The notes under the pieces are model-generated. The model ran no database searches. It saw only the letters and a program-made list of their open reading frames with translations, and was not told the DNA's origin. From Minisyncoccota bacterium (GTDB taxonomy: Bacteria; Patescibacteriota; Minisyncoccia; Phycocordibacterales; CAINVO01), in the NCBI GenBank assembly GCA_028714275.1, contig JAQTMP010000001.1, forward strand, positions 1 to 63,953: DNA of 63,953 nt, in the 5' to 3' direction. This document shows positions 5,079 through 58,473 of this stretch, piece after piece; positions within the stretch are counted from its first letter, which is position 1, and every line of letters begins with the position of its first letter. The position numbers were made by a program, and so were the translations under genes.

Positions 5079-5086
5079 GAGCTACA

Positions 5087-5812
5087 TTATATACCTCCTT
5101 TGTACTCTTCGTAAGCGACTTTGAAGGGTAGGTTTCTCTCAGCGTATTTTTCGGTTTTTTCAGGATATTGTTCAAAAAAGGCTTTGTATTTTTCTGAAAC
5201 GGCTCTAGCCTTTTTGGACCTCATCTCGTTAAAATTGTTGCCCACAAAGTCTCCATCGTTGATTTCTTTGATTTGGCCCTCCAATTTTTTGACAGCTGGA
5301 TCCTTTTTATAATCTTCATAGACCCGAACTCTTTCAGCCTCGTCATACTCAGCCGCCTCTGTTGGAAAACGTTCTGAAAATATTTCAAAGGCGCGTTCCC
5401 TGCCGCTTTTGACCCTTTTACCATTAACTACGCCATTTTCCATGTAATTGTGAAGGTCCACCTCTCGATTGGGCGCATCCCCAAGGAGCTGTTCCCAGCT
5501 ATATTGAAGCTCCTGCAAAATAGATTCGAAACGCGAGTCCTGCTCTATGTATTTTAGAGTCTCCCGGGCTTCTTTTTTTTGGCCGGCTTTCTCACTTCCC
5601 TCCTCAAAATCTGGGAAAAGAGCCAGCTCTAAGCGCAAATTTTGCAAACGTTTCGCCTCTCGCTCGACGTGGGGATTGACTCTTTTATTTTGAGCAATTA
5701 AAATAGCCTCCCCCAACGGAGCTTGTCTCATTTTTTCGATTTTACCGATTTCGCTCTTTGGAATTTCTTCTTGAAGATTTTCGGAATTTTCCGGAGATTT
5801 CAAACTGTTCAT
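5087..5812 (-). CDS. Hypothetical protein (charged, Glu/Lys-rich)
   Basis: 241-aa ORF co-oriented with and abutting its neighbours. No motif recognised. Confidence 0.45.
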   Translation of the reverse strand: MNSLKSPENSENLQEEIPKSEIGKIEKMRQAPLGEAILIAQNKRVNPHVEREAKRLQNLRLELALFPDFEEGSEKAGQKKEARETLKYIEQDSRFESILQELQYSWEQLLGDAPNREVDLHNYMENGVVNGKRVKSGRERAFEIFSERFPTEAAEYDEAERVRVYEDYKKDPAVKKLEGQIKEINDGDFVGNNFNEMRSKKARAVSEKYKAFFEQYPEKTEKYAERNLPFKVAYEEYKGGI

Positions 5813-5819
5813 GTCTAAA

Positions 5820-6593
5820 TTATAGCACAGTCAAAATTTCTGGGCCTTTTTCGGTGATAACAATAGTGTGTTCGAACTGAGCGCTACGCTTACCATCGGC
5901 TGTTCGATAGGTGTAACCATCACTATCCATAGTAGCGCGAGGGGTACCTTCATTGATGATCGGCTCCACGGCTATGACCATGCCAGGTTTGAGAGCGGGA
6001 CCTTGACCTTTTTTGCCAATATTTGGCACAAAAGGGTCTTCATGTACTTCATAGCCCACTCCATGTCCGCCTAGATTTTCGGCGATACCAAACTTGCTGT
6101 TTTTTTTGACAAAACTTTCAATAGCGAGGCCAATGTCACCGGTGCGGGCGCCCACCTGTGAGGCTTTGATGCCAGCGGCCAAGGCCCCCCGCGTGACGTC
6201 CATGAGCTTTTGGGCGCCCGCGTCTACCTTTCCAACCCCGACAGTCGTGGCGCTATCCACAATCATGTTTTGATACGAAATACCCATGTCCAGAGTGACG
6301 ACGTCGCCCGTTTTCAAGATCCGAGGCCTTTCATTTGGAATACCATGTACAATTTCATCATTGATGGAGACGCAAATGCTTGCAGGATAGGGACGATCGG
6401 CACCATATGGTTGATAATTTAGAAAAACTGGAACCGATTTATATTTTTTACAAAGTTCATTGGCCTTATCATCAATTTCCTTGGTAGAAATACCCTCCAC
6501 AGTTGTCTCTGATAGTTCCTTTAAAATTTGAGCTAGGATTTTCCCTGCCTTTCGGAGTTTTGCGATATCTTCGGGTGTTTTGATAGTAATCAT
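5820..6593 (-). CDS. map: Type I methionine aminopeptidase
   Basis: ICVSINDEIVHGIP, VTLDMG, GHGVGYEVHEDP and EHTIVIT motifs. Canonical position after adk. Confidence 0.95.
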   Translation of the reverse strand: MITIKTPEDIAKLRKAGKILAQILKELSETTVEGISTKEIDDKANELCKKYKSVPVFLNYQPYGADRPYPASICVSINDEIVHGIPNERPRILKTGDVVTLDMGISYQNMIVDSATTVGVGKVDAGAQKLMDVTRGALAAGIKASQVGARTGDIGLAIESFVKKNSKFGIAENLGGHGVGYEVHEDPFVPNIGKKGQGPALKPGMVIAVEPIINEGTPRATMDSDGYTYRTADGKRSAQFEHTIVITEKGPEILTVL

Positions 6594-6605: not shown

Positions 6606-7262
6606 TTAGATGCGAGAATTGATTTCGTTGATCAAATCACGCTGCACTTTCTCGACTGGCTGTTCGCCATTTATGTGTAAAAAATGATAATTCTCATTTT
6701 CCTTAAAATAATTGATAGCTGGAATAACATCCCGCTGGTACCAGTCTAGGCGTTTCTCAATCATGGCAATATCAATATCGTCCTCACGCCCCCGCGAAAG
6801 CAGGTGCTTACGCGACCATTCGCGACTAACATCCAGGTAAACCACAAAGGGCATTTCTCTTTTATAAAACCTCATGGCTGTATCCAAAATAACCGCTTCC
6901 TCATGAGAACGGGGTGACCCATCGATAATTAGCTGATCTTTAGGGTTGAATTCTCTGATCAAAAGATTGGACCACATCCAGATGGCTAAAAAATCTGGCT
7001 GGCGATTTCCTAAAGCTGACACTTCACTAGCCAATTTATTGGACGAACCCTTTTCGGACATAAAACTCCGGAAATGTAAGCCTGTCTCCAGGTAATACAC
7101 ACTTGTTTGGTTTTCAGGCGCAACAACCTCTCCCGTCTCCTTTTCCATAGCCTCAATCGCTATCTTGTCCTGTTTTATTAAGTGCTCCTTTAGAAGCTCC
7201 GCCTGCGTGCCCTTACCACAGCCTGAGCGGCCTATAAAAATAAAGGTCTGGGGTTGTTTCAT
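6606..7262 (-). CDS. adk: Adenylate kinase-like NMP kinase
   Basis: P-loop FIFIGRSGCGKGTQAELL. Position is after secY. The track ORF extends to 7361, but the ATG at 7262 (MKQPQTFIF...) avoids running into hairpin element A1. Confidence 0.8.
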   Translation of the reverse strand: MKQPQTFIFIGRSGCGKGTQAELLKEHLIKQDKIAIEAMEKETGEVVAPENQTSVYYLETGLHFRSFMSEKGSSNKLASEVSALGNRQPDFLAIWMWSNLLIREFNPKDQLIIDGSPRSHEEAVILDTAMRFYKREMPFVVYLDVSREWSRKHLLSRGREDDIDIAMIEKRLDWYQRDVIPAINYFKENENYHFLHINGEQPVEKVQRDLINEINSRI

Positions 7263-7290
7263 AGGGCTATTATACAGAAATGGAGAAAAA

Positions 7291-7408
7291 TTGGTACCCA
7301 GAAGTAAAGACTTTTTGGAGACACGGAAAATTTTTGCTAAAATTTTCCTTGTCCTCGCCAACGCTTTGGCTGCGGGGTCTCCAAAAAGTCTTTACTTCTG
7401 GGTACCAA
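7291..7408. repeat. Hairpin element family A, copy 1 (perfect 32-bp stem, 54-nt conserved core)
   Basis: Arms 7291-7322 and 7377-7408 are exact reverse complements. The core plus the TTTTTGGAGAC/GTCTCCAAAAA inner arms recur, inverted, at 13149-13251. Confidence 0.85.
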
Positions 7409-7544
7409 TATTCTATCTTATTGACAGATTATCGGCTGATTTGTTAGTATACTTTCACATACAGAGAATCAAGTGATTCCCTGCCGGCCCCGCCCACAAG
7501 GCGGGGAATATTTATTTATAAAAGCAATTTTAAAAATAAAATAA

Positions 7545-7618
7545 AATTCTCCAAAAGACCTTTAGAACGGGTTAGCGAGTCTTCGAGCGCTTTAGTGAGA
7601 AAGGTCTTTTGGAGAATT
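7545..7618. repeat. Hairpin element family B, copy 1 (perfect 19-bp stem, 36-nt loop with conserved core)
   Basis: Arms are 7545-7563 and 7600-7618. The loop core gaacgggttagcgagtcttcgagcgctttagtga recurs at 24360-24393 with 1 mismatch. It ends 1 nt from the secY stop codon. Confidence 0.85.
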
Positions 7619-7619
7619 T

Positions 7620-11985: not shown

Positions 11986-12264
11986 TTACAAACTCTTGAG
12001 ATAAGCTACAGCCTCATTGGTACTATTAAAGCTTGGGGATATATCTTTGCCTTCTTTGATATCCTTGATTTCACGAATAAGCATGGCTCGTGTCTGAGCG
12101 CTTATTTTCTGTTGTGAAACTAGGCCAATATCAAGCTGCCCATCAACAAAAGCCTTGGTAGCCAGCTTAAGCACAGAAGAAAATGGAATCCCCTCATTTT
12201 GGGCCTTTTTCATAGCTTTCTCCTTAAGTTTACTATTTATATTAAAAATTATTTGTGTGTTCAT
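11986..12264 (-). CDS. DinJ/RelB-like antitoxin, copy 1
   Basis: 92 aa. MNTQIIFNINSKLKEKAMKKAQNEGIPFSSVLKLATKAFV fits a ribbon-helix-helix antitoxin N-terminus. It lies 16 nt upstream of the toxin. Confidence 0.65.
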   Translation of the reverse strand: MNTQIIFNINSKLKEKAMKKAQNEGIPFSSVLKLATKAFVDGQLDIGLVSQQKISAQTRAMLIREIKDIKEGKDISPSFNSTNEAVAYLKSL

Positions 12265-12309
12265 TGGTTTTTTTGTTTGTCATACATTATCGTCTATTGA
12301 GACGTATAT

Positions 12310-12338
12310 ATCTTATATATATTACAGATATATGTCAA
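12310..12338 (-). promoter_or_regulatory. Candidate sigma70-like promoter of TA module 1 (TTGACA - 17 nt - TAAGAT) inside an imperfect AT-rich inverted repeat
   Basis: The minus strand reads TTGACATATATCTGTAATATATATAAGAT. The inverted repeat is GACATATATCT/AGATATATACGTC. Confidence 0.3.
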
Positions 12339-12605
12339 CAAAGCATTTTTCCTTACGAAACATCTAGGGTATACTTAGATTAATACGCCTTATGTAGCTA
12401 CTATGAGTAAAAAGAGTCTTTGGATATTTGGATACTTTGTTTCTTAATCTTTTCCTATACCCTATTTTTGGCATAATTTTCCTTGTTGCTGGTATTTTTT
12501 TGATTCGCTCGAGGTGATATTTATTCGAACATTCTCCCGGGTGCGCAGCCGAATAAAGTAATGCTGAGGTATTGAACTGTTAAGAAAACTTGACTAAATA
12601 ATAAT

Positions 12606-13079
12606 TTGATTGTATCTTTTGATTTAGAAAACCGTTCAACAAGCAAAAGGATACAAATTATGTCCAAAGCATTTATGAAACGTGGAAGTGAGCGTCAGGC
12701 TCTCCACGAAGAAGCACACAAAGATATTTACAGACTCGAGGAAACATCTGAAGAATGGGCGAAGAACGGGCACAAGGCCTGCGCCTATCTAGCCCAAATA
12801 ATTATTGCCTACCTCTTCGGTAAAAACATGTCTCACCTTTCTAGTACTAGACGTGAACGGTACGAGCTGGTGGCTGAGGAGCTTTTTCAAAAGGTAACCC
12901 TTCGCCGCTATGCAACCTTCGCCAGAGCTGAAGAAGAAGAAAAAGCAATGCTTGCAGAATTTGCACTTTGGCTGATCGAAAGTCAGGCATTGTGTCAGTT
13001 TCCGCATGATCTTGCACGCATTGAAATATGCGATCCTCAGACAATTTTTCGGGCGCCCTCGGCTATGTCTGAAGTATAA
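12606..13079 (+). CDS. Hypothetical protein (opposite strand to the ribosomal operon)
   Basis: 157-aa ORF; a more likely start is MSKAFMKRG at 12660. It is followed by a good terminator. No motif recognised. Confidence 0.5.
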   Translation: MIVSFDLENRSTSKRIQIMSKAFMKRGSERQALHEEAHKDIYRLEETSEEWAKNGHKACAYLAQIIIAYLFGKNMSHLSSTRRERYELVAEELFQKVTLRRYATFARAEEEEKAMLAEFALWLIESQALCQFPHDLARIEICDPQTIFRAPSAMSEV

Positions 13080-13135
13080 AACCCGCCACTCAACCCAGGA
13101 ACCCATCCTGCCAGTTGAGGGTGGGTTTTCTGTTT
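13078..13135 (+). terminator. Rho-independent terminator of the 12606-13079 gene
   Basis: Stem aaaacccgccactcaac / gttgagggtgggtttt, followed by a T-run. Confidence 0.55.
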
Positions 13136-13148
13136 AAACAGTTGCGCT

Positions 13149-13251
13149 AAATAAATAGTGGTTTTTGGAGACCCCGCAGCCAAAGCGTTGGCGAGGATAA
13201 AGAAAATTTCAGCAGAAATTTTCTGTGTCTCCAAAAACCACTATTTAGTTT
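13149..13251. repeat. Hairpin element family A, copy 2 (inverted relative to copy 1)
   Basis: Arms are 13149-13172 and 13227-13251 (1 mismatch). The core equals the reverse complement of the copy 1 core with 5 differences, 4 of which form two compensatory pairs. It ends 3 nt from the rplE stop. Confidence 0.85.
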
Positions 13252-13254
13252 GGG

Positions 13255-13800
13255 CTATTTTTTGAAAAGAAAACCCAACTTCTCCAACATCGCCCGAGTA
13301 AGTTTTTTATCCTTTGAAGTAGTTACGATAGTAACCGCAAAACCAAAGACATCTTTGAGCTCTTCATCTGAAGTTTCAGGAAAGACGGTGTGCTCTTTAA
13401 CCCCAATGGTAAAGTTGCCCATAGCGTCAATGGCTTCTGGCTTGAGGCCACGGAAGTCACGGGTACGAGGGAGAGCAATGTTTACAAGCTTATCAAGAAA
13501 GCTATACATACGGTCACCACGGAGAGTGACCTGATAGCCGACAGGATCGCCTTCTCGCACCTTGAAGGTAGCGATTGATTTTTTGGCGGCTTTCTCAGCC
13601 ACTTTCTGACCAGTGATCTTTGTAAGACGGTCGCCGATAAGTTTCTTCTTGTTGGCATCTTTGACCGAGCCAGTGGCCGAACCAATGACAACTTTGACGA
13701 GCTGAGGAGCTTCCATCTTGTTTTTAAAACCAAAATCTCCTTTCATTTCATCAAAAAGAGCTTTTTCTTTATCTTTTATAGTGTGTGATTGTGTTTTCAT
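13255..13800 (-). CDS. rplE: 50S ribosomal protein L5
   Basis: ATFKVREGDPVGYQVTLRGDRMYSFLDKLVNIALPRTRDFRG. Confidence 0.9.
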   Translation of the reverse strand: MKTQSHTIKDKEKALFDEMKGDFGFKNKMEAPQLVKVVIGSATGSVKDANKKKLIGDRLTKITGQKVAEKAAKKSIATFKVREGDPVGYQVTLRGDRMYSFLDKLVNIALPRTRDFRGLKPEAIDAMGNFTIGVKEHTVFPETSDEELKDVFGFAVTIVTTSKDKKLTRAMLEKLGFLFKK

Positions 13801-21180: not shown

Positions 21181-21370
21181 ATGTTTTAAAATTATTTATA
21201 ATTATTAATAAATTTTGCTAACAATTTTTGCACTGATGCTGCAAGTTTGGCTTATTTCTTGTCTCTTTCGTAGACAAAAAAAGGCGCAAAACGCGATACG
21301 GGTCATCATAGCAAACCTTGTTAGAAAGTCAAATCTTAAAGCCCTTCCTGCGTAATTATCTTTCTTACAA

Positions 21371-21483
21371 GCAAGCCTGTAGGTGACCTTTTGAGGAACT
21401 CACGGAGGACGACGGTCCGAGTGGGAGGAAAAAAGTCAGCAGACTTTTTATCCGTGTCCGAAAAAGGTCACCTACAGGCTTGC
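21371..21483. repeat. Hairpin element family C, copy 1 (perfect 22-bp stem, 69-nt loop with conserved 58-nt core)
   Basis: Arms are 21371-21392 and 21462-21483. Imperfect complementarity continues outward to about 21352/21497. The core recurs at 27324-27381. Confidence 0.85.
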
Positions 21484-21525
21484 CTATAAGAGAATTATGA
21501 GTAGTATGTCTTTTAGAGAAATCAA

Positions 21526-24307: not shown

Positions 24308-24347
24308 CCAATTTTAAAGTATTGTAGAAAATAGAAATAAAAAAACA

Positions 24348-24405
24348 GGAAGGCCTCTCGAACGGGTTAGCGAGTCATCGAGCGCTTTAGTGAGAGAGGC
24401 CTTCC
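24348..24405. repeat. Hairpin element family B, copy 2 (12-bp GC-rich stem flanked by A/T runs, 34-nt conserved loop)
   Basis: Arms are ggaaggcctctc (24348-24359) and gagaggccttcc (24394-24405). The loop matches copy 1 except for 1 nt. It ends 6 nt from the fusA stop codon. Confidence 0.85.
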
Positions 24406-24411
24406 TTTTTT

Positions 24412-26556
24412 TTATTTGCTTCTATTTTCTACAATAGTCTTCTCCACATTTGGAGGGACCACATCGTAGTGGTCAAATTCCATGGTAGCTGAACCTCGTC
24501 CAGCGGTCATAGAACGAAGAGAGGTAGTATAGCCGAACATTTCTGACAATGGCACCATCGCCTTGATGGCTTTATTCATACCGCGATCTTCCATGCCTTC
24601 GATCTGAGCCCGCTTGGCTGAAAGTGAGCCAGTGATGTCTCCCATGAACTGTTCTGGGGTGACCACTTCTACCTTCATGATCGGCTCGAGGATGACAGGG
24701 CGAGCTTTTTTAGCGGCTTCTTGAAAGGCTTGAGAACCGGCAATCTTGTACGCGATTTCGGATGAGTCCACATCGTGATAAGAACCAAAGTTCAAATCAC
24801 AAGAAACGTTGACCATTTTAAATCCAGCCACAATCCCGCGCTCCATCGCTTCGCGAACGCCTTTTTCAACAGCAGGAATAAATTCTTGAGGAATAACCCC
24901 TCCTTTAATATTATCGATAAATTCAAAGTCATCGTAGCGCTTGACATTTTTTGGCACTTTGGCGCCCTCTTCCAATTTTTCAAGAGGTTTGATAGCAATT
25001 TTGACGTGGCCATACTGACCTTTACCTCCAGACTGCTTAATATATTTGTGTTCTGCTTCCGCACTGCCAAGAATAGTCTCTCGATAGGCCACTTGAGGTT
25101 TACCCACGTTGGCTTCTACGCCGAACTCACGCTTCATACGATCCACCATGATTTCAAGATGAAGCTCACCCATACCTGAGATGATAGTTTCCATTGTTTC
25201 GGGGTTGGTTGAGATGCGGAAAGTTGGATCCTCGTCTCCCAATTTTTTAAGAGCCATACCCATTTTTTCTTGATCCGCTTTGGTTTTTGGTTCGATACGG
25301 AGGGAAACCACAGGCTCGGCAAACTTAATAGGGTCGAGCACAATGGGATGATTTTCATCACAAAAAGTATGGGAGGTTTTGGCTTCCTTTAGACCTACAG
25401 CTGCCGCAATTTCTCCGGCAAAAACCTTTTTTACTTCTTCACGCTTGTCGGCTTGAAGGCGCACGATACGGCCAAGACGCTCCTTGTTGCCAGTGGTCGA
25501 GTTGTATAAATATGAGCCGGCTTCGACAGTCCCTGAATAAACACGGAAGAAGGTAAGCTGCCCGACAAACGGATCTGATTGGAGCTTGAAAGCCAAAGCA
25601 GCAAAAGGCTCGCTGTCAGAAGCGTGGCGAACAATCACATCTCCAGTGTTTGGATCGATACCTTGGATTGGGGGAACATCAAGAGGTGAAGGAAGATACT
25701 CCACGACGGCATCAAGGACAAGTTGAACCCCGCGATTCTTCAAAGCCGAGCCGGTAAAGACTGGGAAGATTTTGTTGGCAATCACTCCTTTACGCAAAGT
25801 TGCTTTGAGTTCCTCAATAGTAAACTCGCCGCCTTCGAGGTAACGATTCATCAAGTCTTCATCGAGCTCAACGATCTTTTCAACAAGCTCGGCGCGATAT
25901 TTTTTGGCATCTTCGAGATGAGTAGCTGGGATTTCCATTTCGCGGACATCAATACCCATATCTCCCTCGAAAGCGTAGGCCTTCATTTTCAAAAGATCGA
26001 TAACAGCTTCAAATTTGTCTTCTTCGCCAATAGGCAGCTGCATCCGGACAGCACTTTTATTGAGACGGTCAAGAATAGACCTGAAGGAACGTTCAAAAGA
26101 ACCTCCTGTGCGGTCAAGCTTGTTGATAAAACAAATGCGGGGCACATGATACTTGTCGGCTTGACGCCACACTGTTTCAGATTGAGGCTCTACTCCGGCC
26201 ACACCGTCAAAGACCACCACCCCTCCGTCGAGCACTTTGAGAGAACGCTCCACCTCCACGGTAAAGTCCACGTGTCCTGGTGTGTCAATAATATTAAAAC
26301 GATGTTTCTTGGACTGGTCCTTGCCCATATAGCTTGGATTCCAAAAACAGGTAATAGCAGCAGCTGTAATAGTGATGCCTCGTTCTTTTTCCTGTTCCAT
26401 CCAGTCAGTGACAGCTTCACCTTCATGCACTTCACCAATCTTGTGGCTCATGCCTGTGTAATAAAGAATGCGCTCAGACGTAGTGGTCTTGCCAGCGTCG
26501 ATGTGAGCAATGATACCAAAGTTTCGGGTTTTTTCGAGTGAATAGTCGCGTTCCAT
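24412..26556 (-). CDS. fusA: Elongation factor G
   Basis: [20 protein letters not shown] and NKLD motifs. 714 aa. Confidence 0.98.
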
Positions 26557-26683: not shown

Positions 26684-26941
26684 CTACTTATATAGAGCAC
26701 TGTGAGTCCCTACCTTGATCAAGATGTATGAGTTCGTTTCAACTTTTTTATAAATCAATCTAATATCCCATGTCACATTAATACTCCTATATAAAGAATA
26801 CTCGCCGTGTAACTGATGATTGTTTAAAATTGACTCAAATTCATTCTTGATTAAAATTTCTAATCGTTCAAGCACTTTGATTTGCTGTTTATGTGGCAAC
26901 TTTTTAAAAAGTCTTTTAAATTCAGGTGAATAAATCAGCAT
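26684..26941 (-). CDS. RelE/YafQ-family type II toxin, copy 2
   Basis: 85 aa ending VGTHSALYK. Clearly alignable by eye to the toxin at 11712-11969. Confidence 0.7.
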   Translation of the reverse strand: MLIYSPEFKRLFKKLPHKQQIKVLERLEILIKNEFESILNNHQLHGEYSLYRSINVTWDIRLIYKKVETNSYILIKVGTHSALYK

Positions 26942-26961
26942 GAGGAGTTTGAAATTGAAAA

Positions 26962-27246
26962 CTAAGACATGAGTTGTCTTGCAAGCTCGTCAATATTTTT
27001 TGCTTTGTAAAAATGACCCTTTTTATACTCTTTCTCAGATCTAGTAATTGAGCGAATTAAGCTAGCTGTAGGACGAGGTGCTATTGAAAAAGTCACTTCC
27101 TTTGAACGAACAAACTGTCTCAGGAAGGCATTTATAACTGTACTCAAAGAGATGCCCATCTCATCAGCGGTTTTTTTTGCATCTAATTTAAGACTCTTAT
27201 CCATTTTTATAGAAATAAGTGTCTTTGTGTGATTGATTGTAGTCAT
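26962..27246 (-). CDS. DinJ/RelB-like antitoxin, copy 2
   Basis: MTTINHTKTLISIKMDKSLKLDAKKTADEMGISLSTVINAFLRQFV. The track ORF (to 27525) runs through element C2 and into rpsG, so the internal ATG at 27246 is used. Confidence 0.65.
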   Translation of the reverse strand: MTTINHTKTLISIKMDKSLKLDAKKTADEMGISLSTVINAFLRQFVRSKEVTFSIAPRPTASLIRSITRSEKEYKKGHFYKAKNIDELARQLMS

Positions 27247-27281
27247 ATACCAAAGTATATACTTTGGTATATTATTGTCAA
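27247..27281 (-). promoter_or_regulatory. Promoter (TTGACA - 16 nt - TATACT) overlapping a perfect 24-bp palindrome ATACCAAAGTATATACTTTGGTAT that abuts the antitoxin ATG; candidate operator and leaderless transcript
   Basis: The palindrome is 27247-27270. The -35 is at 27276-27281 and the -10 at 27254-27259 (plus-strand coordinates). Only 7 nt separate the -10 from the ATG, and no Shine-Dalgarno sequence is visible. Confidence 0.5.
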
Positions 27282-27296
27282 GTAACGTAGTAGTAT

Positions 27297-27409
27297 AAAA
27301 AAACAAAAAACCTCTTGAAGGAGACTCGCGGAGGACGACGGTCCGAGCGTGAGGAAAAAAGTCAGCAGACTTTTTATCCGTTCTCCTGAAAGAGGTTTTT
27401 TGTTTTTTT
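27297..27409. repeat. Hairpin element family C, copy 2 (perfect 20-bp A/T-rich stem, 73-nt loop)
   Basis: Arms are 27297-27316 and 27390-27409. The 58-nt core differs from copy 1 at 3 positions, two of which are a compensatory pair. It ends 3 nt from the rpsG stop. Confidence 0.85.
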
Positions 27410-27412
27410 AAA

Positions 27413-27883
27413 TTACCAAGCCAGGTGGGCAAAAGCCTTGTTGGCCTCGGCCATTTTGTGAGTGTTTTCGCGCTTTTTGACCGCTTCACCTTCGTTTTTG
27501 GATGCGAGGATGATTTCATCAGCAAGCTTGAGATGCATTGGCTGACCCTTTTTAGCTCGAGCAGCGAGAATGATCCATTTCATAGAAAGATGGCTGCGGC
27601 GCTCAGGTCGAACTTCACGGGGAACCTGATAGTTGGCGCCACCAACTCGGCGGGAGCGGACTTCCATAGCCGGAGCGGTGTTGTTGAGAGCTGTATCAAA
27701 AACTTCGAGAGGATTTTCAACTTTTTCCTTTTCTTTAATGGCATCAAAAGCGCCATAGACAATAGCGCGGGCGGCATTTTTCTTGCCTCGTTCCATGACG
27801 TAGTTTACAAACTTCTCAATCTTTTCAGATTTGAAAACTGGATCTGGCTTGACGATATTTCGATTTTTAACTTTTCTTCGCAT
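27413..27883 (-). CDS. rpsG: 30S ribosomal protein S7
   Basis: EVRSRRVGGANYQVPREV...MAEANKAFAHLAW. Confidence 0.95.
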   Translation of the reverse strand: MRRKVKNRNIVKPDPVFKSEKIEKFVNYVMERGKKNAARAIVYGAFDAIKEKEKVENPLEVFDTALNNTAPAMEVRSRRVGGANYQVPREVRPERRSHLSMKWIILAARAKKGQPMHLKLADEIILASKNEGEAVKKRENTHKMAEANKAFAHLAW

Positions 27884-45715: not shown

Positions 45716-46153
45716 ATGCTAAAAAATATCCCTTATATTACCGACCCAGATTGCCTTTTTTGTAAAATCATTGAGGGCTCAATTTCATCATATAAAGTCT
45801 ACGAAGATGCTGACACTTATGCTTTTCTGGATATCAATCCAAACAATCACGGCCACACCCTAGTAGTGCCAAAAGATCATTTTGAAAATATTTATGGCAC
45901 CCCAGATGAAACTCTCTGTCGTACCATGATCACAGCCCGGAAAGTCGCCATCGCAGTCAAAAACGCCCTAAATGCAGACGGGGTAAACATTAACATCAAC
46001 AACGAAACGGCGGCTGGCCAAATAATTTTTCATACTCACATTCATATTATTCCTCGTTTCAATAATGACGGTTTCAAACACTGGGCCCAAAAAAGCTACC
46101 TCCCTGGCGAAGCCGAAAGCGTCTTAGAAAAGATAAAAGAAAAACTTAAATAA
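45716..46153 (+). CDS. HIT-family (histidine triad) nucleotide hydrolase
   Basis: CLFCKII...FLDINP.N.GHTLVVPK...HTHIHIIPR. Confidence 0.9.
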   Translation: MLKNIPYITDPDCLFCKIIEGSISSYKVYEDADTYAFLDINPNNHGHTLVVPKDHFENIYGTPDETLCRTMITARKVAIAVKNALNADGVNININNETAAGQIIFHTHIHIIPRFNNDGFKHWAQKSYLPGEAESVLEKIKEKLK

Positions 46154-46271
46154 AATTAAGAGCCCTTTCGGGAGCACGGATAAATCCTTGCTAGGATTTT
46201 CCTCGTGCTCGCTCCGTCGAGCCTCGCAAGTCTCCCTCAAGGGTTCTTAATTTTATTTAAGTTTTTCTTTT
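46135..46271. repeat. Hairpin element family D, copy 1 (31-bp stem with one G-T, ~75-nt conserved core)
   Basis: Arms are 46135-46165 and 46241-46271. The 5' arm contains the last 5 codons plus stop of the HIT gene, and the 3' arm reaches the pgk stop codon. The core recurs at 55551-55620. Confidence 0.85.
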
Positions 46272-47412
46272 ATTTTAGCGCTTCAATTCCGACTAACGTC
46301 TCATCCAAAAGATATTGCAACATCGCACCGCCGCCAGTAGAAATAAAACTAATTTTTGACTCAGCTTTTTCCCCGAGAGAGCTAATAGCGGCCAGAGTAT
46401 CTCCCCCGCCCACCACCGCTTCTAAAGAGCCGTCCGCATCTGAAATAATTTTAGCCAGCTCAATAGTCGGCTCCGTAAAACCAAGCTCATAATTTCCGAG
46501 TGGACCATTCCACAAAACACATTTTGATTCACCAATCATGGTCTGCAGCATAGACATGGTTTCGGGACCTGCATCCATAATGACGTCTGCGTCACCCACT
46601 TGGTCTGATTTCTTGGCTGAAACAGCCTGAGTATTTTTATCCTGCACGATGACATCTGTCGGGACCAAAAGCCTGGTGTCCGCTACTATATCTGTGACCG
46701 AAAAATCTCCACCTGAGACAAGCGATGCTCCGACATTCCATCTGCGCGCCTTAAAAAGATTGTTGGCCAAAGCTCCTCCCACAAAAACATGGTCAGCCAA
46801 CGTTAAAAACTTTTGAATCAAAGGGAGTTTGGTGTCAAACTTAGCGCCGCCTAAAATAAACAAAAAAGGATGAGGGGGGTGAAATATTTTTTTGAGATGG
46901 TTGATCTCGTCAGACAAAAGCAGCCCAGCATAGTGAGGTAAAAATTCGGGTACCCCCACTATCGAAGCATGTGATCGGTGTGAGACAGAAAAAGCATCAT
47001 TCACGTAGATGTCTGCAAAACCAGCTAGTTTTTTAGAAAATTCTCGATCATTCTTTTTTTCTTCTGGGTATTGGCGGATATTTTCGACGAGAATGATATC
47101 TCCGTCCGCCATAGAAGACATTTCGGCTAAACTTTCTTTGCTAAAAATATCTTCAACAAAAGTTAAAGGAAAAATCTTCATTAAATAATCATAGATAGGC
47201 CGCAGGGAATCTCCGCCCTTGCCTTCAATGTGACTAATGAGGATAATCTTTGCCTTTTGATTGCGTAAAAACTCAATAGTCGCAAGGCTTTTTTTGATTC
47301 GGGTGTCTCCAGTGATTTTACCGTTTTCGATGGGGACATTAAAATCTACCCGCACAAGTACTTTTTTACCGGCAAGGGATTCCAAGGTGGTGATGGATTT
47401 TGGGATGAGCAT
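46270..47412 (-). CDS. pgk: Phosphoglycerate kinase
   Basis: RVDFNVP, ISH.GKG, NDAFSVSHR and STGGGA motifs. Confidence 0.95.
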   Translation of the reverse strand: MLIPKSITTLESLAGKKVLVRVDFNVPIENGKITGDTRIKKSLATIEFLRNQKAKIILISHIEGKGGDSLRPIYDYLMKIFPLTFVEDIFSKESLAEMSSMADGDIILVENIRQYPEEKKNDREFSKKLAGFADIYVNDAFSVSHRSHASIVGVPEFLPHYAGLLLSDEINHLKKIFHPPHPFLFILGGAKFDTKLPLIQKFLTLADHVFVGGALANNLFKARRWNVGASLVSGGDFSVTDIVADTRLLVPTDVIVQDKNTQAVSAKKSDQVGDADVIMDAGPETMSMLQTMIGESKCVLWNGPLGNYELGFTEPTIELAKIISDADGSLEAVVGGGDTLAAISSLGEKAESKISFISTGGGAMLQYLLDETLVGIEALK

Positions 47413-53712: not shown

Positions 53713-55467
53713 TTATTCCGAAATCACCCGCAAAACTTCTTCGATAGTAGTGACTCCTTTGACACATTGATAGATACCATCTTCTATCATAGTAAGCATG
53801 CCTTCACTCCGCGCCTGTTTTTCAATCTCATCTGAGCTAGCCCCGCGAATGATCAACTCCTTGATCGCTGAGCTCACTTTCAACACTTCGTGAATACCTA
53901 CGCGGCCTCCATAGCCGTCTTCCGAATCCGCGCTCGGACGAGGTTTGTAAAAAGGAATCTCTTTCCACTCTGCATTAGCAGCCACAATGTTTTCTTCTTT
54001 CAAAACCTTGAGAACTTTATCCATATCAATCTTCTTACTAACCTGAGCAAGCTCATCTTTTGATAAAAGATATTTGTCTTTTGCGTTAGTCAATCTACGA
54101 ATCAAACGCTGAGCCACAATGACATTGAGAGTCGACACGAGCAAGAAGGGCTCACATTTCATATCTATCAGACGAGGAATGGCACCGGCTGCAGAGTTGG
54201 TGTGCAGTGTCGAAAGCACGAGGTGGCCAGTCAAAGCTGCATTGATGGCGAGTGAAGCCGTCTCATTGTCACGGATTTCCCCCACCATGATGATATCTGG
54301 ATCCTGGCGAACAAGTGAGCGCAGACCTGAAGAAAATGTAAAACCGATTTCGGGTTTGACCTGAGTCTGGTTGACCCGTTTCATTTGATATTCCACAGGA
54401 TCTTCGATGGTCGAAATATTCACATCTGGAGTGTTCAAAATGTCCAGCATGGTGTAGAGAGTGGTGGTTTTTCCGGAGCCGGTGGGACCGGTAGTGAGGA
54501 TCATGCCGGTGGTGAGCTTGGTCGATTCATGCAAAAGTTCAAGTCCTTCACCATGAAAACCCAGACCCTCGAGAGAAAAACCTGAAGCATTTTCTCGCAG
54601 CAAGCGCATGACGGTTTTTTCTCCAAAATAGGTTGGCAGAACAGAGACACGGAAAGAAATTTTTTCCCCGTTTAGATCTATTTTAAAGCGGCCATCCTGA
54701 GGAAGGCGTTTTTCGTCGAGTTTGAGATTGGCCAACACTTTCAAACGCGCCGTAATGCTCGAACCGGCACTTTTTGGCAAAATCATGGCATCGTGCAAAA
54801 TACCATCAATCCGATAACGGACCACCACCTCTGTTTCCATCTGCTCAATGTGAATATCCGAAGCCCCTTGAATGGCGGCGTGCTTGAGGAGCGTGTCCAC
54901 AATACGCACCACTGGCAGATCCTCAGCCAATTTTTTTAAATCGTCTGCGCTTGTCTGATCATCTCCAGAAGAATTTCCTACATTTTTAAGTCCAGCCGCT
55001 TCCTTTTGGATGATATCTCCAAAATCCGCCTTAAGGCTTTTCTGGTATTGAAGTAAGGCTGCCTTGATTGAATCATTGTTGGTAAGTCGAGGAAGAATTT
55101 TTAAACCAGTTTTTTTCTTAATAAAATCAATGGCACTGAGATCCTCGGCGTCTAGCATAGCCACCTCGAGAGTGTCTTTGTGTTTTTTAAAGGCCACGAT
55201 GTTGTGATTGCGGGCAATCGGTTCTGGAATAGTAGACAAGACATCAAAGTCCAATTTTTGATCCGCTAAGTCAATAAAAGGAATGCCGAATAGATACGCT
55301 TGCATGCGGCGGAAATCATCCTCCAAAACTTTTCCCCCGCTCACCAAAATATCCCCTATCGACTGCCCTCGTTTTTTGGCTTCGATTTCCGCCGCGTCAA
55401 TATCCGCTCGACTGACCAGTCCCGAGTCCAGGATAAATTTTTTTAATTGCTCTTCTTCGATGTGCAT
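53713..55467 (-). CDS. pilB: Type IV pilus assembly ATPase PilB/GspE family
   Basis: Walker A TGPTGSGKTTT, Asp box, Walker B IIMVGEIRD and His box LTGHLVLSTLHTN. Confidence 0.95.
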   Translation of the reverse strand: MHIEEEQLKKFILDSGLVSRADIDAAEIEAKKRGQSIGDILVSGGKVLEDDFRRMQAYLFGIPFIDLADQKLDFDVLSTIPEPIARNHNIVAFKKHKDTLEVAMLDAEDLSAIDFIKKKTGLKILPRLTNNDSIKAALLQYQKSLKADFGDIIQKEAAGLKNVGNSSGDDQTSADDLKKLAEDLPVVRIVDTLLKHAAIQGASDIHIEQMETEVVVRYRIDGILHDAMILPKSAGSSITARLKVLANLKLDEKRLPQDGRFKIDLNGEKISFRVSVLPTYFGEKTVMRLLRENASGFSLEGLGFHGEGLELLHESTKLTTGMILTTGPTGSGKTTTLYTMLDILNTPDVNISTIEDPVEYQMKRVNQTQVKPEIGFTFSSGLRSLVRQDPDIIMVGEIRDNETASLAINAALTGHLVLSTLHTNSAAGAIPRLIDMKCEPFLLVSTLNVIVAQRLIRRLTNAKDKYLLSKDELAQVSKKIDMDKVLKVLKEENIVAANAEWKEIPFYKPRPSADSEDGYGGRVGIHEVLKVSSAIKELIIRGASSDEIEKQARSEGMLTMIEDGIYQCVKGVTTIEEVLRVISE

Positions 55468-55530
55468 AAATAGGGTGAAAAAGTATTTTCATATATATTG
55501 TATCAAATTTTTAGGGGCAAGAGAATGAAA

Positions 55531-55640
55531 CTATCAGTCTAAAGTCTCTTTCGGGAGCACGGATAAATCCTTGCTAGGATTTTCCTCGTGCTCGCTCCGT
55601 CGAGCTCGCAAGTCTCCCTCAAGAGACTTTAAACTGATGG
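55531..55640. repeat. Hairpin element family D, copy 2 (20-bp stem with 2 mismatches)
   Basis: Arms are 55531-55550 and 55621-55640. The 3' arm is the last 6 codons of the DGR RT gene (HQFKVS). The core differs from copy 1 by a 1-nt indel. Confidence 0.85.
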
Positions 55641-56620
55641 TTAGCGACCTTTTTCTGCAACTTCCCTGTGTTTCCATGACTTAAAAGCCCTAGATAAGAT
55701 TGGATTACCTCCTTTTTTGTGTCTTTGTGGATATTCCTAAACATCCTTTTCTTGGTGGTGGTCCGTAAAACTCGATGAGTGGGAAAATGTACCCATCCTA
55801 AAAAATCAACGCCTGATGAAAAGGTTTTGAGATAGATTTTATCCGGATGAAGCGAAAGTTTCAGATTTTCGTATAAAAATTGGGAAATTTTTGGAAGAAC
55901 TTTGAGCAATGTGTCTTTATCGTGGTGCATGATCACAAAGTCATCAGCGTAGCGAATATAGTGTTTCTGTTTTAGTTCGTGTTTTACGAACTGATCAAAT
56001 TCGTTCATATAGATATTTACAAGAAGCTGAGAAGTTAGGTTGCCGAGAGGTAACCCCTTACCTTCTCCTATAGACTGAAAGCTATCGATAATTTGGATTA
56101 GCAACCATAAAACGTCCTTATCTTTCAGATACATGTCTAGTATGTCAATTAGTACCTCGTGATCGACAGATGCGAAAAATTTTCTGATATCGCACTTGAG
56201 TATCCAAAGTGTCTTCCTGTTATTCTTGCTCGCCTTGTACCCGTATTTCCTAAACTGCTGCACGGCTTTATGGGTTCCCTTTCCAAACCGACACGAATAC
56301 GAATCTGATATAAATGTCCTGTTAAAGAAAGAATGAAGTTTACGATAAATTGCGTGGTGCAATAGTCTGTCACGAACACTGGCTTTATGAATATTTCTTG
56401 GCTTTGGATCGGATATATTGAACGCTTCATACGGAAGATGAACGTAAGTTTTGTCTTTTAATTCTAGGTGAAGAGCAATGATATTACTCATCAGATTTCT
56501 TTGAAATTCCTGTACATCTTTTCTGCCCTTTTTGCCGTTTATAAACTCCTCCCATGCTTCGAGCAAATTTTCTAGAGAAATGATATCGTTGTAACTACTA
56601 TCAGAAGTAATTAAAGCCAT
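55619..56620 (-). CDS. DGR-type reverse transcriptase
   Basis: RT motifs include YADDFVI and the DGR-diagnostic LPLGNLTSQLLVNIYMNEFD ((I/L)GxxxSQ). The gene is adjacent to avd and a TR/VR pair. Confidence 0.9.
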   Translation of the reverse strand: MALITSDSSYNDIISLENLLEAWEEFINGKKGRKDVQEFQRNLMSNIIALHLELKDKTYVHLPYEAFNISDPKPRNIHKASVRDRLLHHAIYRKLHSFFNRTFISDSYSCRFGKGTHKAVQQFRKYGYKASKNNRKTLWILKCDIRKFFASVDHEVLIDILDMYLKDKDVLWLLIQIIDSFQSIGEGKGLPLGNLTSQLLVNIYMNEFDQFVKHELKQKHYIRYADDFVIMHHDKDTLLKVLPKISQFLYENLKLSLHPDKIYLKTFSSGVDFLGWVHFPTHRVLRTTTKKRMFRNIHKDTKKEVIQSYLGLLSHGNTGKLQKKVANHQFKVS

Positions 56621-56623
56621 TCT

Positions 56624-57028
56624 ATGAAGTCTACCCCCCCCCCGAGAATCCTGCCAGTGTTACAAAAGCTAAAAACTGTGTATATCCAATGGTACGGCTA
56701 TTTACAGACAATTCCGAAGCCTCATCGTCATTCCTTAGGCTTAAGAATTGATACTTTATTTGTTGAGAGCATGGAAGCGATCAGTGTGGCAAGTTTCCTG
56801 CAAAGGAAAGAAAAACTGCCTTGGGTGAAATTGGCTATACGAAAAATTGATACTGCAAAAGTCCTACTTATGGTGCTTTGGGAGACAAAATCATTAGACA
56901 GTAAAAAATATATTGAATTGTCGGTTCAACTGGAAGAAATTGGGAAAATGCTTGGTGGTTGGAATGGACAGATATCATCGAGACTTTTAAAACAAAACTC
57001 TCCTACCATGAAGGCGGGAGAGAAATGA
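56624..57028 (+). CDS. avd: Avd-like four-helix-bundle DGR accessory protein
   Basis: 134 aa with helical heptad-like pattern (YGYLQTIPKPHRHSLGLRIDTLFVESMEAI...EEIGKMLGGW). Its ATG is 3 nt from the divergent RT ATG, and its stop is 5 nt from TR2. Confidence 0.75.
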   Translation: MKSTPPPRILPVLQKLKTVYIQWYGYLQTIPKPHRHSLGLRIDTLFVESMEAISVASFLQRKEKLPWVKLAIRKIDTAKVLLMVLWETKSLDSKKYIELSVQLEEIGKMLGGWNGQISSRLLKQNSPTMKAGEK

Positions 57029-57033
57029 GAGAG

Positions 57034-57165
57034 TTGCGAAGACGGAAGACGATCCGATTGTCGAGATCCCAATGATTGTCGGGATTCGTCCAATTGCCGT
57101 TGAGCCAACGATTGCCGTCATCGTTGCGCTTGACGTTGAACACGTTCGGGTTGCCGTCGGAGTCG
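57034..57165 (-). repeat. DGR template repeat TR2
   Basis: It aligns without gaps to 57568-57699 (offset 534). All 20 mismatches are plus-strand T in TR (A on the coding strand). In the target frame it reads DSDGNPNVFNVKRNDDGNRWLNGNWTNPDNHWDLDNRIVFRLR. Confidence 0.92.
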
Positions 57166-57404
57166 ATTTGTACATGATTTCATCTATTACACCACCCCTA
57201 GAATACTCGCAGGGTTGAATCTTATTTGTGATCTATAATCACTCAAAATCACGCACCAAGTATCTTCATTTTTTTGAAGTGTCTACATACACCACTCTAG
57301 CCGAAACCTTGGTCGCGGATATTCTCGATGCATGGATACTGGATTCGGTAGCGGAAAACCTTGGCCGTCCGCATATTCACCTACTACCGAAATTTATAAT
57401 ATCA

Positions 57405-57440
57405 TAAAATAAAAGCCCCGAGCACGTGATCGTGTCGGGG
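57405..57440 (-). terminator. Rho-independent terminator of DGR target 2
   Basis: Stem ccccgagcacg / cgtgtcgggg (1 bulge), loop tgat, followed on the minus strand by CTTTTATTTTAT. Confidence 0.6.
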
Positions 57441-57551
57441 GGAAGATTTTCTCGTCAGAAATGAATCTGGGCGATAGGTGTATCTTGCCTTAACTTTTTG
57501 CGCCGAAGGACAAAGTTCAAAGGGTCTAAGGAGACCACAGTGGACAAGTCC

Positions 57552-58244
57552 TTAGGGTTTAGCGATCTTGCGAAGACGGAAGACGATCCGAATGCCGAGA
57601 ACCCAACGACGGCCGGGATACGACCAACGGCCGCAGAGCCAACGATGGCCGTCATCGCTGCGCTCGACGCTGAACACGAGCGGGTCGCCGTCGGAGTCGC
57701 TAATGCGTTCCATCGCCATCCAGACGACCTCGCTATTGGGCTGATCCTGATACTGGCGACGGAGTTGCGGCCCGTCTTCAGGAGAGCAAAGTTCGATGAC
57801 GTAGCCATCGAGGCGCTTCGCACTCCACTCGGCGCAGAATTCCTTGGTCATGAACTCGTCCGTGCGCGGATTGGCGGTGAAGCCAAGATCTCGCGGTGTG
57901 AGGTCAATGAGATCAACGTCTTCTTCTTTTTCTGCCACCGAGAACGCGGGTTTGCCCATGATGCCTTTGGCGTAGTCACTGGACTCGTCCTTGACGCTCT
58001 CCGCGAGCTTTTTCTTGGACATACCGCCGACCTTGATGGTTTTCCACGGGGTCAGCGTGCGTTTCTGGATTGGCGAAGAGATCGGGGTCTTGTTTCGATC
58101 CTTAATCGCCACTACCGAGAGCGCGATTGCGGCTTCGGTATTTTCGATGGCCCATTGGACGTCATCGTTTGAGAGGGCTTCGAATCCCTCCTGTTTACTC
58201 ACAATTGCCCCTGCGAGTACGGGGATCTGTTGTTTGGTTGCCAT
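57552..58244 (-). CDS. DGR variable (target) protein 2 with C-terminal CLec-type VR
   Basis: The track ORF runs to 58295. The ATG at 58244 (MATKQQ) is preceded by AGGAG about 10 nt upstream. No signal peptide is visible. GC is elevated. Confidence 0.85.
   Translation of the reverse strand: MATKQQIPVLAGAIVSKQEGFEALSNDDVQWAIENTEAAIALSVVAIKDRNKTPISSPIQKRTLTPWKTIKVGGMSKKKLAESVKDESSDYAKGIMGKPAFSVAEKEEDVDLIDLTPRDLGFTANPRTDEFMTKEFCAEWSAKRLDGYVIELCSPEDGPQLRRQYQDQPNSEVVWMAMERISDSDGDPLVFSVERSDDGHRWLCGRWSYPGRRWVLGIRIVFRLRKIAKP
57568..57699 (-). repeat. DGR variable repeat VR2
   Basis: It encodes DSDGDPLVFSVERSDDGHRWLCGRWSYPGRRWVLGIRIVFRLR. The 24-nt 3' segment (57568-57591) is identical to TR2 (IMH-like). 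Confidence 0.92.
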
Positions 58245-58473
58245 ATATTTATGGCTCCTTTCATTTTTCAGCTTGACTAATGCCGCGAGTTTCAATCTTC
58301 GGTTCTCCTACTGATTGTTTCTCATCGACTAAGGAATCTTTCACCTTTCGTCGCAGCAGGGAGCGGCCTATTTGTAAGCCCCTTTCTGCTGTGACGAATT
58401 TCGCAATGTTTTTTAAAGATCTTAACTGCTGAATATTCTACCATATTTATATGCCCTTTGTCAACGATAGTGT

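Follow-up and report, generated by a model that had tools for sequence, protein, structure and literature searches.

Here we describe a family of structured repeats, traced through two near-identical hairpin cores in a 63,953-nt (~64 kb) stretch of the genome of a Minisyncoccota bacterium (contig JAQTMP010000001.1); "the window" refers to this stretch at its full length. The family is multi-copy, patchy in its distribution and widespread in Patescibacteria, and it is newly defined in this work. In this genome, only a core that folds as a three-way junction is common to the copies; the long arms that flank each core are local, each pair consisting of a native gene end and its inverted copy. The two copies grouped as hairpin family D in a first-pass annotation of the letters, here D1 and D2, may be young copies of a mobile element that is small (~77 nt) and non-autonomous. 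We tentatively favour the view that the closing helix of this mobile core, P1, nucleates snap-back template switching, and that this process both creates and maintains the arms.

D1 lies between the convergent genes HIT (45716-46153, plus strand) and PGK (46270-47412, minus strand), and D2 between a reverse transcriptase (RT) gene (RVT_1; 55619-56620, minus strand) and a T2SSE/PilB gene (53713-55467, minus strand); Pfam agrees with the identities first given to these four genes. The cores had been described as one indel apart, which is confirmed by alignment of D1 (46166-46240) with D2 (55549-55622), where the sole difference is an extra C in D1 at 46222/46223. The range first given for the D2 core, 55551-55620, was a trimmed part of the full interval. 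Counting one more matching base per side (C...G), the unit common to both copies is 77 nt in D1 and 76 nt in D2, and the first 57 nt of the core occur exactly twice in the window, with none expected from shuffles. At the ends of the two copies only the ~10-nt P1 region (CTTTCGGGAG / CTCCCTCAAG) is common, and the long arms are unrelated in sequence.

The arms of D1 (46135-46165 and 46241-46271) form the 31-bp stem that was counted originally, with 30 Watson-Crick pairs and one G-T, and pairing reaches 36 bp when 46130-46165 is set against 46241-46276 (34 Watson-Crick pairs and two G-T). At this extent the 5' arm holds the last seven HIT codons (KIKEKLK), the HIT stop codon (46151-46153) and a 12-nt spacer, all native, while the 3' arm is an inverted copy of the HIT end that also holds the pgk stop codon (46270-46272) and the last pgk codon. 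In D2, 55530-55548 pairs with 55623-55641 over 19 bp (17 Watson-Crick pairs, one G-T and one mismatch). Its 3' arm is the last six codons (HQFKVS, minus strand) of the RT gene, which belongs to a diversity-generating retroelement (DGR), its 5' arm is an inverted near-copy of the RT 3' end, and the RT stop codon TGA (55619-55621, minus strand) sits within the shared core. The gene ends and stop codons are thus placed in the arms as the annotation had them. The whole D1 hairpin folds with -71.3 kcal/mol on the plus strand (z = -12.1 versus shuffles) and -70.4 kcal/mol on the opposite strand (z = -11.3).

The fold of the core, derived from an alignment of 74 distinct copies, is a three-way junction of P1, P2 and P3a/P3, and the repeated unit is itself non-palindromic. 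P1, the closing helix, pairs a T-run and GGAG with CTCC and an A-run and runs on into the arms (46170-46174 with 46232-46236 in D1). P2 consists of GGA/UCC and a 7-bp stem with the loop UGCU (46178-46202 in D1; loop TGCT at 46189-46192), and P3a is followed by a conserved UC/UC internal loop and then by P3, with the loop C(N)GUC (46206-46228 in D1; hairpin 46211-46222, loop CGTC). Paired cells make up 92.9% of the alignment, compared to 68.5% in shuffles and at most 58.6% with slid partners; compensatory changes occur in 25 of 28 pairs, and none of 500 shuffles equalled the observed values. Invariant bases are confined to the junction strands (ACGGAU, UCCUC and AG). Since the internal helices covary, a single-stranded form, either single-stranded DNA or RNA, is under selection. 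The switch or pseudoknot that had been proposed from alternative pairings of GGGAGC with GCTCC finds no place in this fold, as GGGAG/CTCCC is the covarying helix P1 and GCTCC is simply how family D spells the variable helix P3, a sequence that other members do not keep. A GAGCAC/GUGCUC extension appears in the minimum-free-energy fold of D1 but is lost in "gAg" variants, where covariation backs P3a instead (UGC/GCA versus AGC/GCU). A repeated CTCG motif (CTCG...CTCG) was considered as a target-site duplication and rejected, the better fit being a GC/UC-UC/G internal-loop helix. A tRNA-like gene was likewise rejected, because ARAGORN finds none, and so were known small ribozymes, with no Rfam match; to our knowledge, the junction sequences match no known small ribozyme.

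Family D, first taken as separate, is a subfamily: the covariance model R1 finds four further copies in the window, and a pattern scan finds others in many lineages of Patescibacteria. The six window copies score 96, 91, 74.5, 70.8, 61.3 and 56.4 bits, the first two being the plus-strand cores of D2 (96.3 bits, E = 3.8e-26) and D1 (91 bits, E = 1.5e-24). At 74.5 bits, the copy at 27290-27416 (minus strand) lies directly after rpsG, identified by Pfam S7, with one arm overlapping the rpsG stop codon (27413-27415) and 35-nt arms that are 89% complementary. The copy at 21363-21491 (minus strand, 70.8 bits) lies in the intergenic region from which tuf and a pheA/tyrA-like gene diverge, and its arms are not terminator-like. 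In the secY/adk spacer, 7287-7412 (plus strand, 61.3 bits) is antisense to the genes and has 36-nt arms with 97% complementarity. The sixth copy, 13117-13282 (minus strand, 56.4 bits), follows rplE, lies outside the R1 training set and has 56-nt arms that are 82% complementary. The window hairpins have a common plan of variable arm, T-run, GGAG, ACGGA, a hairpin (loop TGCT), TCCTC, a second hairpin (loop CGTC or CGCT), CTCC, A-run and variable arm.

Beyond the window, a gapped pattern made from the conserved part matched at least 120 stretches in species-representative genomes, nearly all of them metagenome-assembled genomes (MAGs) of Patescibacteria. Among the matches listed, the lineages with copies include Saccharibacteria, Paceibacterota, Taylor-, Lloyd-, Vogel-, Zambryskii- and Berkelbacteria and Minisyncoccia, and several copies per genome are frequent. 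The few matches in genomes other than Patescibacteria score at most 23 bits, or not at all, with the covariance model, and hence are pattern-only matches; viral contigs gave no match to the pattern. No Rfam family matched the window or 18 element-bearing loci at the gathering threshold, and an E-value search of the region returned only generic long-hairpin (miRNA-precursor) matches far under their cut-offs. As no account of such an element was found in the searchable literature, the family appears to be undescribed so far.

Some copies depart from the common plan. In the following, labels beginning with L denote loci from other genomes that were compared with the window. The P3 domain is much enlarged in L023 (~4862-5090), L043, L047, L017, L077, L078 and L108, giving elements of ~190-250 nt, and is absent in L062, which marks P3 as a module that can vary or be inserted. 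Two large subfamilies (e.g. L049, L080, L017 and L027; L016, L117 and L106) have conserved internal-loop motifs in their arms, either 5' CTCTTTCTCGG with 3' CCTTCGACGAG or 5' CGCTCG with 3' CTCGCTC. Both are pyrimidine-rich symmetric loops resembling the UC/UC loop of the core, and it is possible that all of these represent a common recognition motif. L007 (4735-7392) contains, in this order, a 16S rRNA gene, a region matching group II intron domains D1-D4 (6440-6518), an element (~7026-7110) and a tRNA (7320-7392).

How did the arms come to mirror the neighbouring genes? Across 118 copies the flanks are complementary beyond chance, with a median score of 15.5 against 7.0 for shifted controls (95th percentile 9.2), and the median arm is ~25 nt long and 91% identical. 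From P1 outward, pairing never falls below 0.87, and there is neither a dip where the conserved element meets unique flank nor a loop remnant. The gene-side arm can be recognized as native. The HIT tail EKIKEKLK agrees in length and pattern with the tails of 16 homologues. The right arm of 13117-13282 comprises the last 8-9 native codons and the stop codon of the gene for ribosomal protein L5, with an inverted near-copy on the left, and it spans LGFLFKK (LGFPFKK in relatives), inside the Pfam domain L5_C, which extends to residue 179 of 181. The RT is of normal length, with a tail that varies among homologues. Because the gene-side arms encode native C-termini, the other arm must be the inverted copy, and the native HIT and L5 tails bear out the initial proposal that one arm is an inverted duplicate of the neighbouring gene end. 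Conservation of C-terminal residues encoded by the arms had been expected to refute inverted copying; this was mis-specified, as such residues mark the template arm. Mismatches within the arms include 41 G-T and 66 A-C, and the lack of a G-T excess shows that the arms are not shaped by selection on a plus-strand RNA.

The HIT/pgk junction was recovered from five relatives (HIT 64-70% identical), in which the two genes overlap by 9 or 12 nt or lie 12-17 nt apart, with no palindrome at any of these sites. In L186 (2924-2932) and L190 (1918-1929), the convergent genes overlap by 9-12 nt and share codons on opposite strands; in L189, a small unrelated open reading frame (ORF) abuts HIT and pgk adjoins that ORF. 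The pgk C-terminus ALK* is conserved in the relatives. In the window the same junction measures 116 nt, and this genome has thus gained the core together with an inverted copy of ~31 nt of the HIT end. The full palindrome with a small loop that the first-pass annotation had named as the finding that would favour simple insertion is lacking in these relatives.

Other observations also point to mobility. Neither R1 nor nhmmer finds a copy in 632 kb from the nearest available relatives, which covers the syntenic RNaseH-RecJ-HIT/PGK-TIM region and the ribosomal-protein region, and none of the closest relatives in an L5-based metagenome scan (74/66/59% identical) has a core. Gene order after rplE is not conserved in the window, which weakens the argument from the operon. 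By crude ORF calls, 35 copies count as sense co-directional, 23 as antisense, 22 as divergent and 17 as convergent; many lie 13-60 nt past a stop codon, and no context, orientation or orthologous position is conserved among copies. That identical cores sit in unrelated arms, and that the window has six copies and its relatives none, supports a mobile core. Independent short-read contigs of the same organism (Logan assembly SRR22315509) break inside the core, and exact-protein look-ups for strain variants (HIT, RT and S7) returned either the same sample alone, its contigs broken in the core, or nothing.

In some other MAGs the whole hairpin, including conserved 30-40-nt arms, is the repeat unit, at ~150-170 nt. 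Arms are conserved along with the core at L030, L035, L051, L054, L060 and L073 (all from one MAG), at L049, L052 and L090, and at L008, L011, L063 and L093. Of ~9 such arm-inclusive copies examined, five are flanked by 7-nt direct duplications (AGCGCTT, GAGTTTT, ATAATTA, TAATATA and AGATTAC). D1 and D2, in contrast, have inverted flanks with no direct duplication. In L073 and L054 the core is flipped relative to the outer ends when compared with L035 and L060.

The annotation had suggested looking for a linked enzyme, and none was found: Pfam annotation of the window proteins revealed no transposase, recombinase or HUH gene, and in a clustering of neighbouring proteins no gene recurrently beside the copies points to an enzyme. 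A gene for an NYN-domain (PIN-like) nuclease lies within 2.5 kb of elements in four loci (L035 and three others) and at 1750-2295 in the window, 5 kb from a copy; its recurrence may be coincidence or synteny, and we judged it insufficient as a candidate.

The most elaborate arrangement of arms and cores is in L113 (1-720), where the 3' end of a tRNA-Asn gene (127-201) is present five times in alternating orientation. The copies of this 3' end (CGAATCCTGTCTCCG) lie at 179-198, 248-267, 357-374, ~463-476 and 538-552, and three of the junctions between them each hold a different core. A further core lies upstream, at 21-102. This chain, together with the non-terminator-like arms of D2 and of 21363-21491 and the finding that eight of the long palindromes in the window have cores while three weaker ones have none, supports a coupling between arm and core.

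Our favoured, still tentative, model accommodates these features as follows. The core, as single-stranded DNA or RNA, folds into the three-way junction; a new strand would fold back on P1 of the element, copy ~20-50 nt of its own upstream flank and then return to the template. Later rounds of the same process would keep the arms perfect and could flip the core. Delivery of the core to new sites might depend on a trans-acting enzyme or on copy-choice from another copy, and the resulting hairpin, in which stop codons and the A/T-rich tails of genes are included, probably has a second role as a bidirectional terminator or 3'-end structure. Template switching during replication is able to make perfect stems in one event, to homogenise arms and to invert spacers (PMC8794818; PMC8604942), and the flipped cores of L073 and L054 fit this spacer inversion. 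The family membership, the fold, the patchy multi-copy distribution, the distinction of native from copied arm and the lack of a palindrome in relatives are shown here, while the template-switch step and its coupling to the core are what we infer from them.

A more radical version dispenses with a transposase and would make the element a parasite of replication, which we consider unlikely. Here the stable three-way junction would stall the fork, a nascent strand from another locus would switch onto the core by microhomology and copy it, and the strand would then snap back on P1, reverse-copy its own flank and rejoin its original template. A single event could in this way install arm, core and mirrored arm, and with them a new hairpin or terminator at a gene end, and perfect palindromes that have no core would be related products or excision footprints.

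Such core-less palindromes are among several observations that weigh against snap-back copying from P1. Palindromes perfect through the dyad (loops of 0-3 nt, arms to 30-32 nt) are common in the same genomes, for example at L053 4272-4347, L117 2055-2116, L112 4865-4905 and L093 769-805; in 925 kb, the loop measured 3-12 nt in 100 core-less palindromes and 0-2 nt in 26. Their A-tract, GC-rich apex and T-tract make them look like bidirectional terminators, and perfection through the dyad is unusual for terminators, which suggests a general snap-back or inverted-duplication process in Patescibacteria. Palindrome formation thus needs no core, gene ends are copied in inverted form where none is present, and such sites could have been pre-existing targets. 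The arms of D1 are terminator-like themselves (A-rich, then GAGCCC on one side and GGGTTC on the other, then T-rich). Less the ~10 nt that belong to the element, arm length is ~17 nt, compared to a median of 15.5 for empty hairpins, and overlap with a coding 3' end is similarly rare (7% of core-bearing versus 5% of empty hairpins). In a composition profile of arms against empty terminators, the signal was dominated by the conserved subfamily arms. No filled and empty pair of sites with identical arms was found, and the nearest relatives are 64-74% identical in protein, so that the immediate pre-insertion state was not seen. The junction bases that are invariant across phyla imply recognition by some factor, and at least some subfamilies are probably moved by an ordinary transposase, as the 7-nt duplications seen in other genomes indicate.

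These points lead to the strongest alternative, that the palindromes came first, as perfect bidirectional terminators made from gene ends by core-independent inverted duplication, and that the core inserted specifically at the tip. The tip of an extruded palindrome is single-stranded, and an HUH/Y1-type or other palindrome-seeking transposase might act there, with nothing being copied. Empty perfect palindromes are frequent, they match the core-bearing hairpins in arm length and coding-end overlap, many core-side arms are terminator-like, and a target perfect through its centre leaves no loop remnant, as observed. The covariation implies a single-stranded intermediate, and insertion sequences that target REP palindromes offer a precedent (PMC1525189). 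However, the HIT/pgk junction has no palindrome in five relatives; the arms of D2 and of 21363-21491 are not terminator-like, the latter at a site where no terminator is expected; the L113 chain requires double the number of events; and neither an empty site with matching arms nor a candidate enzyme (in the window or among recurrent neighbours) was found. P2 and P3 are also dissimilar to each other, while the paired end hairpins of IS200/IS605 elements resemble each other. On balance we regard insertion at a dyad as a serious but rather doubtful explanation. The two mechanisms envisaged at the outset, inverted copying and insertion at the dyad, both still stand, given how common perfect core-less palindromic terminators are.

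Alternatively, the element could be a structured RNA that serves the host, a cis-acting module of 3' untranslated or intergenic regions that terminates transcription, signals processing or stability or binds a protein, with cores homogenised by gene conversion and arms free to vary so long as they pair. Strong covariation of helices with junction bases invariant across phyla is the classical signature of a functional fold, many copies follow closely on a stop codon, sense copies are in mild excess over antisense ones (35 versus 23), and hairpins with U-rich 3' arms are plausible terminators. Nevertheless, copies occur in both orientations and in all intergenic contexts, including divergent promoter regions, and the orthologous loci of relatives have no element. 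The arms show no enrichment of G-T over A-C, no Rfam family matches, and the target-site duplications in other genomes show transposition. Gene conversion, moreover, leaves the mirroring of native coding sequence unexplained, and we hold a host-functional RNA to be improbable.

Still less probable is a retro-element whose core RNA is copied into nicked DNA by an RT, such as the DGR RT beside D2, with snap-back of the cDNA on P1 yielding the inverted flank. D2 does abut the RT gene, a structured RNA core would suit recognition by an RT, and reverse transcriptases are known to snap back. D2 is nonetheless the only one of the six window copies with an RT close by, copies in other genomes almost never have one near them, and D1 and D2 show no poly-A tails, 5' truncation pattern or variable-length duplications. 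The DGR is complete (55619-58295), with the RT on the minus strand, a divergent bAvd gene (Pfam; 56624-57028, plus strand), and its own template repeat (TR, 57034-57165) and variable repeat (VR, 57568-57699), both unrelated to the core. The VR is 85% identical to the TR and lies at the 3' end of an ORF at 57552-58295 (minus strand). We also rejected the element as a component of the DGR, since TR and VR lie elsewhere and no RT is close to the five other copies. Multiple-displacement amplification is known to produce inverted chimeras, but a chimeric origin of the palindromes in amplification or assembly is effectively refuted by identical arm-core junctions in the independent Logan assembly SRR22315509 and by the recurrence of the architecture at more than 100 loci from many studies.

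Among known systems, the element is closest in kind to miniature inverted-repeat transposable elements (MITEs), to REP sequences and to mitochondrial hairpin elements, yet it lacks features that define MITEs and REPs: what is conserved lies inside the element rather than at its ends, and neither D1 nor D2 shows a direct duplication. Bacterial MITEs (Correia/NEMIS, ERIC, RUP, bcr1; PMC3184786) are likewise small, non-coding, multi-copy, intergenic, hairpin-forming and patchy, and the arm-inclusive repeats with 7-nt duplications in some other genomes behave like them. MITEs, however, conserve their terminal inverted repeats, whereas here it is an internal, non-palindromic core that different phyla have in common, and the arms in this genome are particular to each locus; inverted repeats border D1 and D2 right up to the element, no parent insertion sequence (IS) is known, and no transposase was found in the window. 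REP/BIME and REPIN sequences with their RAYT (Y1/HUH) transposases (PMC3333891; PMC3116915) are extragenic palindromic repeats that often follow genes, and a single-stranded hairpin as the functional form, non-autonomy and mobilisation in trans are traits we regard as shared. There the palindrome itself repeats, in contrast to the unique arms and repeated three-way-junction core described here, and no RAYT is present in the 64-kb window. IS1397, ISKpn1 and IS110-family elements within REPs (PMC1525189; PMC12288879) also insert at the centre of extragenic palindromes, but they are autonomous, 1-1.5 kb long and directed to a conserved target repeat, rather than 77-nt non-coding cores in unique palindromes.

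Template-switch (quasipalindrome) mutation (PMC8794818; PMC8604942; PMC7202029) generates reverse-complement copies of adjacent sequence in one event, and its arm homogenisation and spacer inversion correspond to the mirrored gene ends, perfect pairing and flipped cores reported here. It is known as a sporadic process, with no described coupling to a dispersed element or to arms of 20-56 nt at many loci. The hairpin and double-hairpin elements of sponge and Allomyces mitochondria (PMC2800124) are also short and mobile, occupy intergenic regions and gene ends of compact genomes, conserve a (double-)hairpin structure and lack a known enzyme; they differ in host compartment, have no sequence relation to the family and conserve their stems, with no reported mirroring of flanks. 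Bidirectional intrinsic terminators resemble D1 in its position between convergent genes, its A-rich and T-rich outer arms and its GC-rich inner stem, but where a terminator has its loop D1 carries a structured insert of 75 nt, and copies of the family also occur antisense, between divergent genes and with non-terminator arms. A terminator scan does not call the D1 hairpin; D1 could terminate through its inner stem and U-rich arm. IS200/IS605-derived PATEs have similar subterminal hairpins at both ends, neither terminal inverted repeats nor target-site duplications, and insert 3' of a fixed tetra- or pentanucleotide. D1 and D2 have no target-site duplication and contain two internal hairpins, but P2, an AT-rich stem of 7 bp with the loop TGCT, is unlike P3, a GC-rich stem of 4 bp with the loop CGTC. 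The last bases of the left flanks are ...CCC and ...CTC, and two copies yield no clear target motif.

The window also holds a second family of hairpin cores, at 7544-7619 and 24320-24436, directly after secY and fusA. Its 34-nt core, AACGGGTTAGCGAGTC(T/A)TCGAGCGCTTTAGTGAG, lies at 7566-7599 and 24361-24394, at the dyad of terminator-like palindromes, and at 24320-24345 the outer arm repeats the last fusA codons as an inverted near-copy. Read as its reverse complement (..AAAGCGCTCG-nnnn-CTCGCT..), this core is similar to the CGCTCG/CTCGCTC motifs found on either side of "class B" copies in other genomes. The str and spc ribosomal operons are interrupted in the window, at 26684-27525 by a RelB-like antitoxin ORF between rpsG and fusA, and at 11986-13106 by ~1.1 kb without rpsN after rplE; both interruptions are bordered by hairpin-core elements.

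Much of bacterial diversity belongs to Patescibacteria, whose non-coding DNA has hardly been studied; the R1 covariance model can now be used to annotate a phylum-spanning family of structured repeats in it. The element breaks short-read assemblies. It also rewrites the 3' ends of genes, supplying the stop codon of the RT and shaping the termini of pgk and HIT, and it parts convergent genes that overlap in relatives. If snap-back copying is indeed nucleated by the element, it would represent a new way for mobile DNA to build long, perfect hairpins and terminators from coding sequence, and would offer a natural setting where mutation by template switching happens often enough to be studied.

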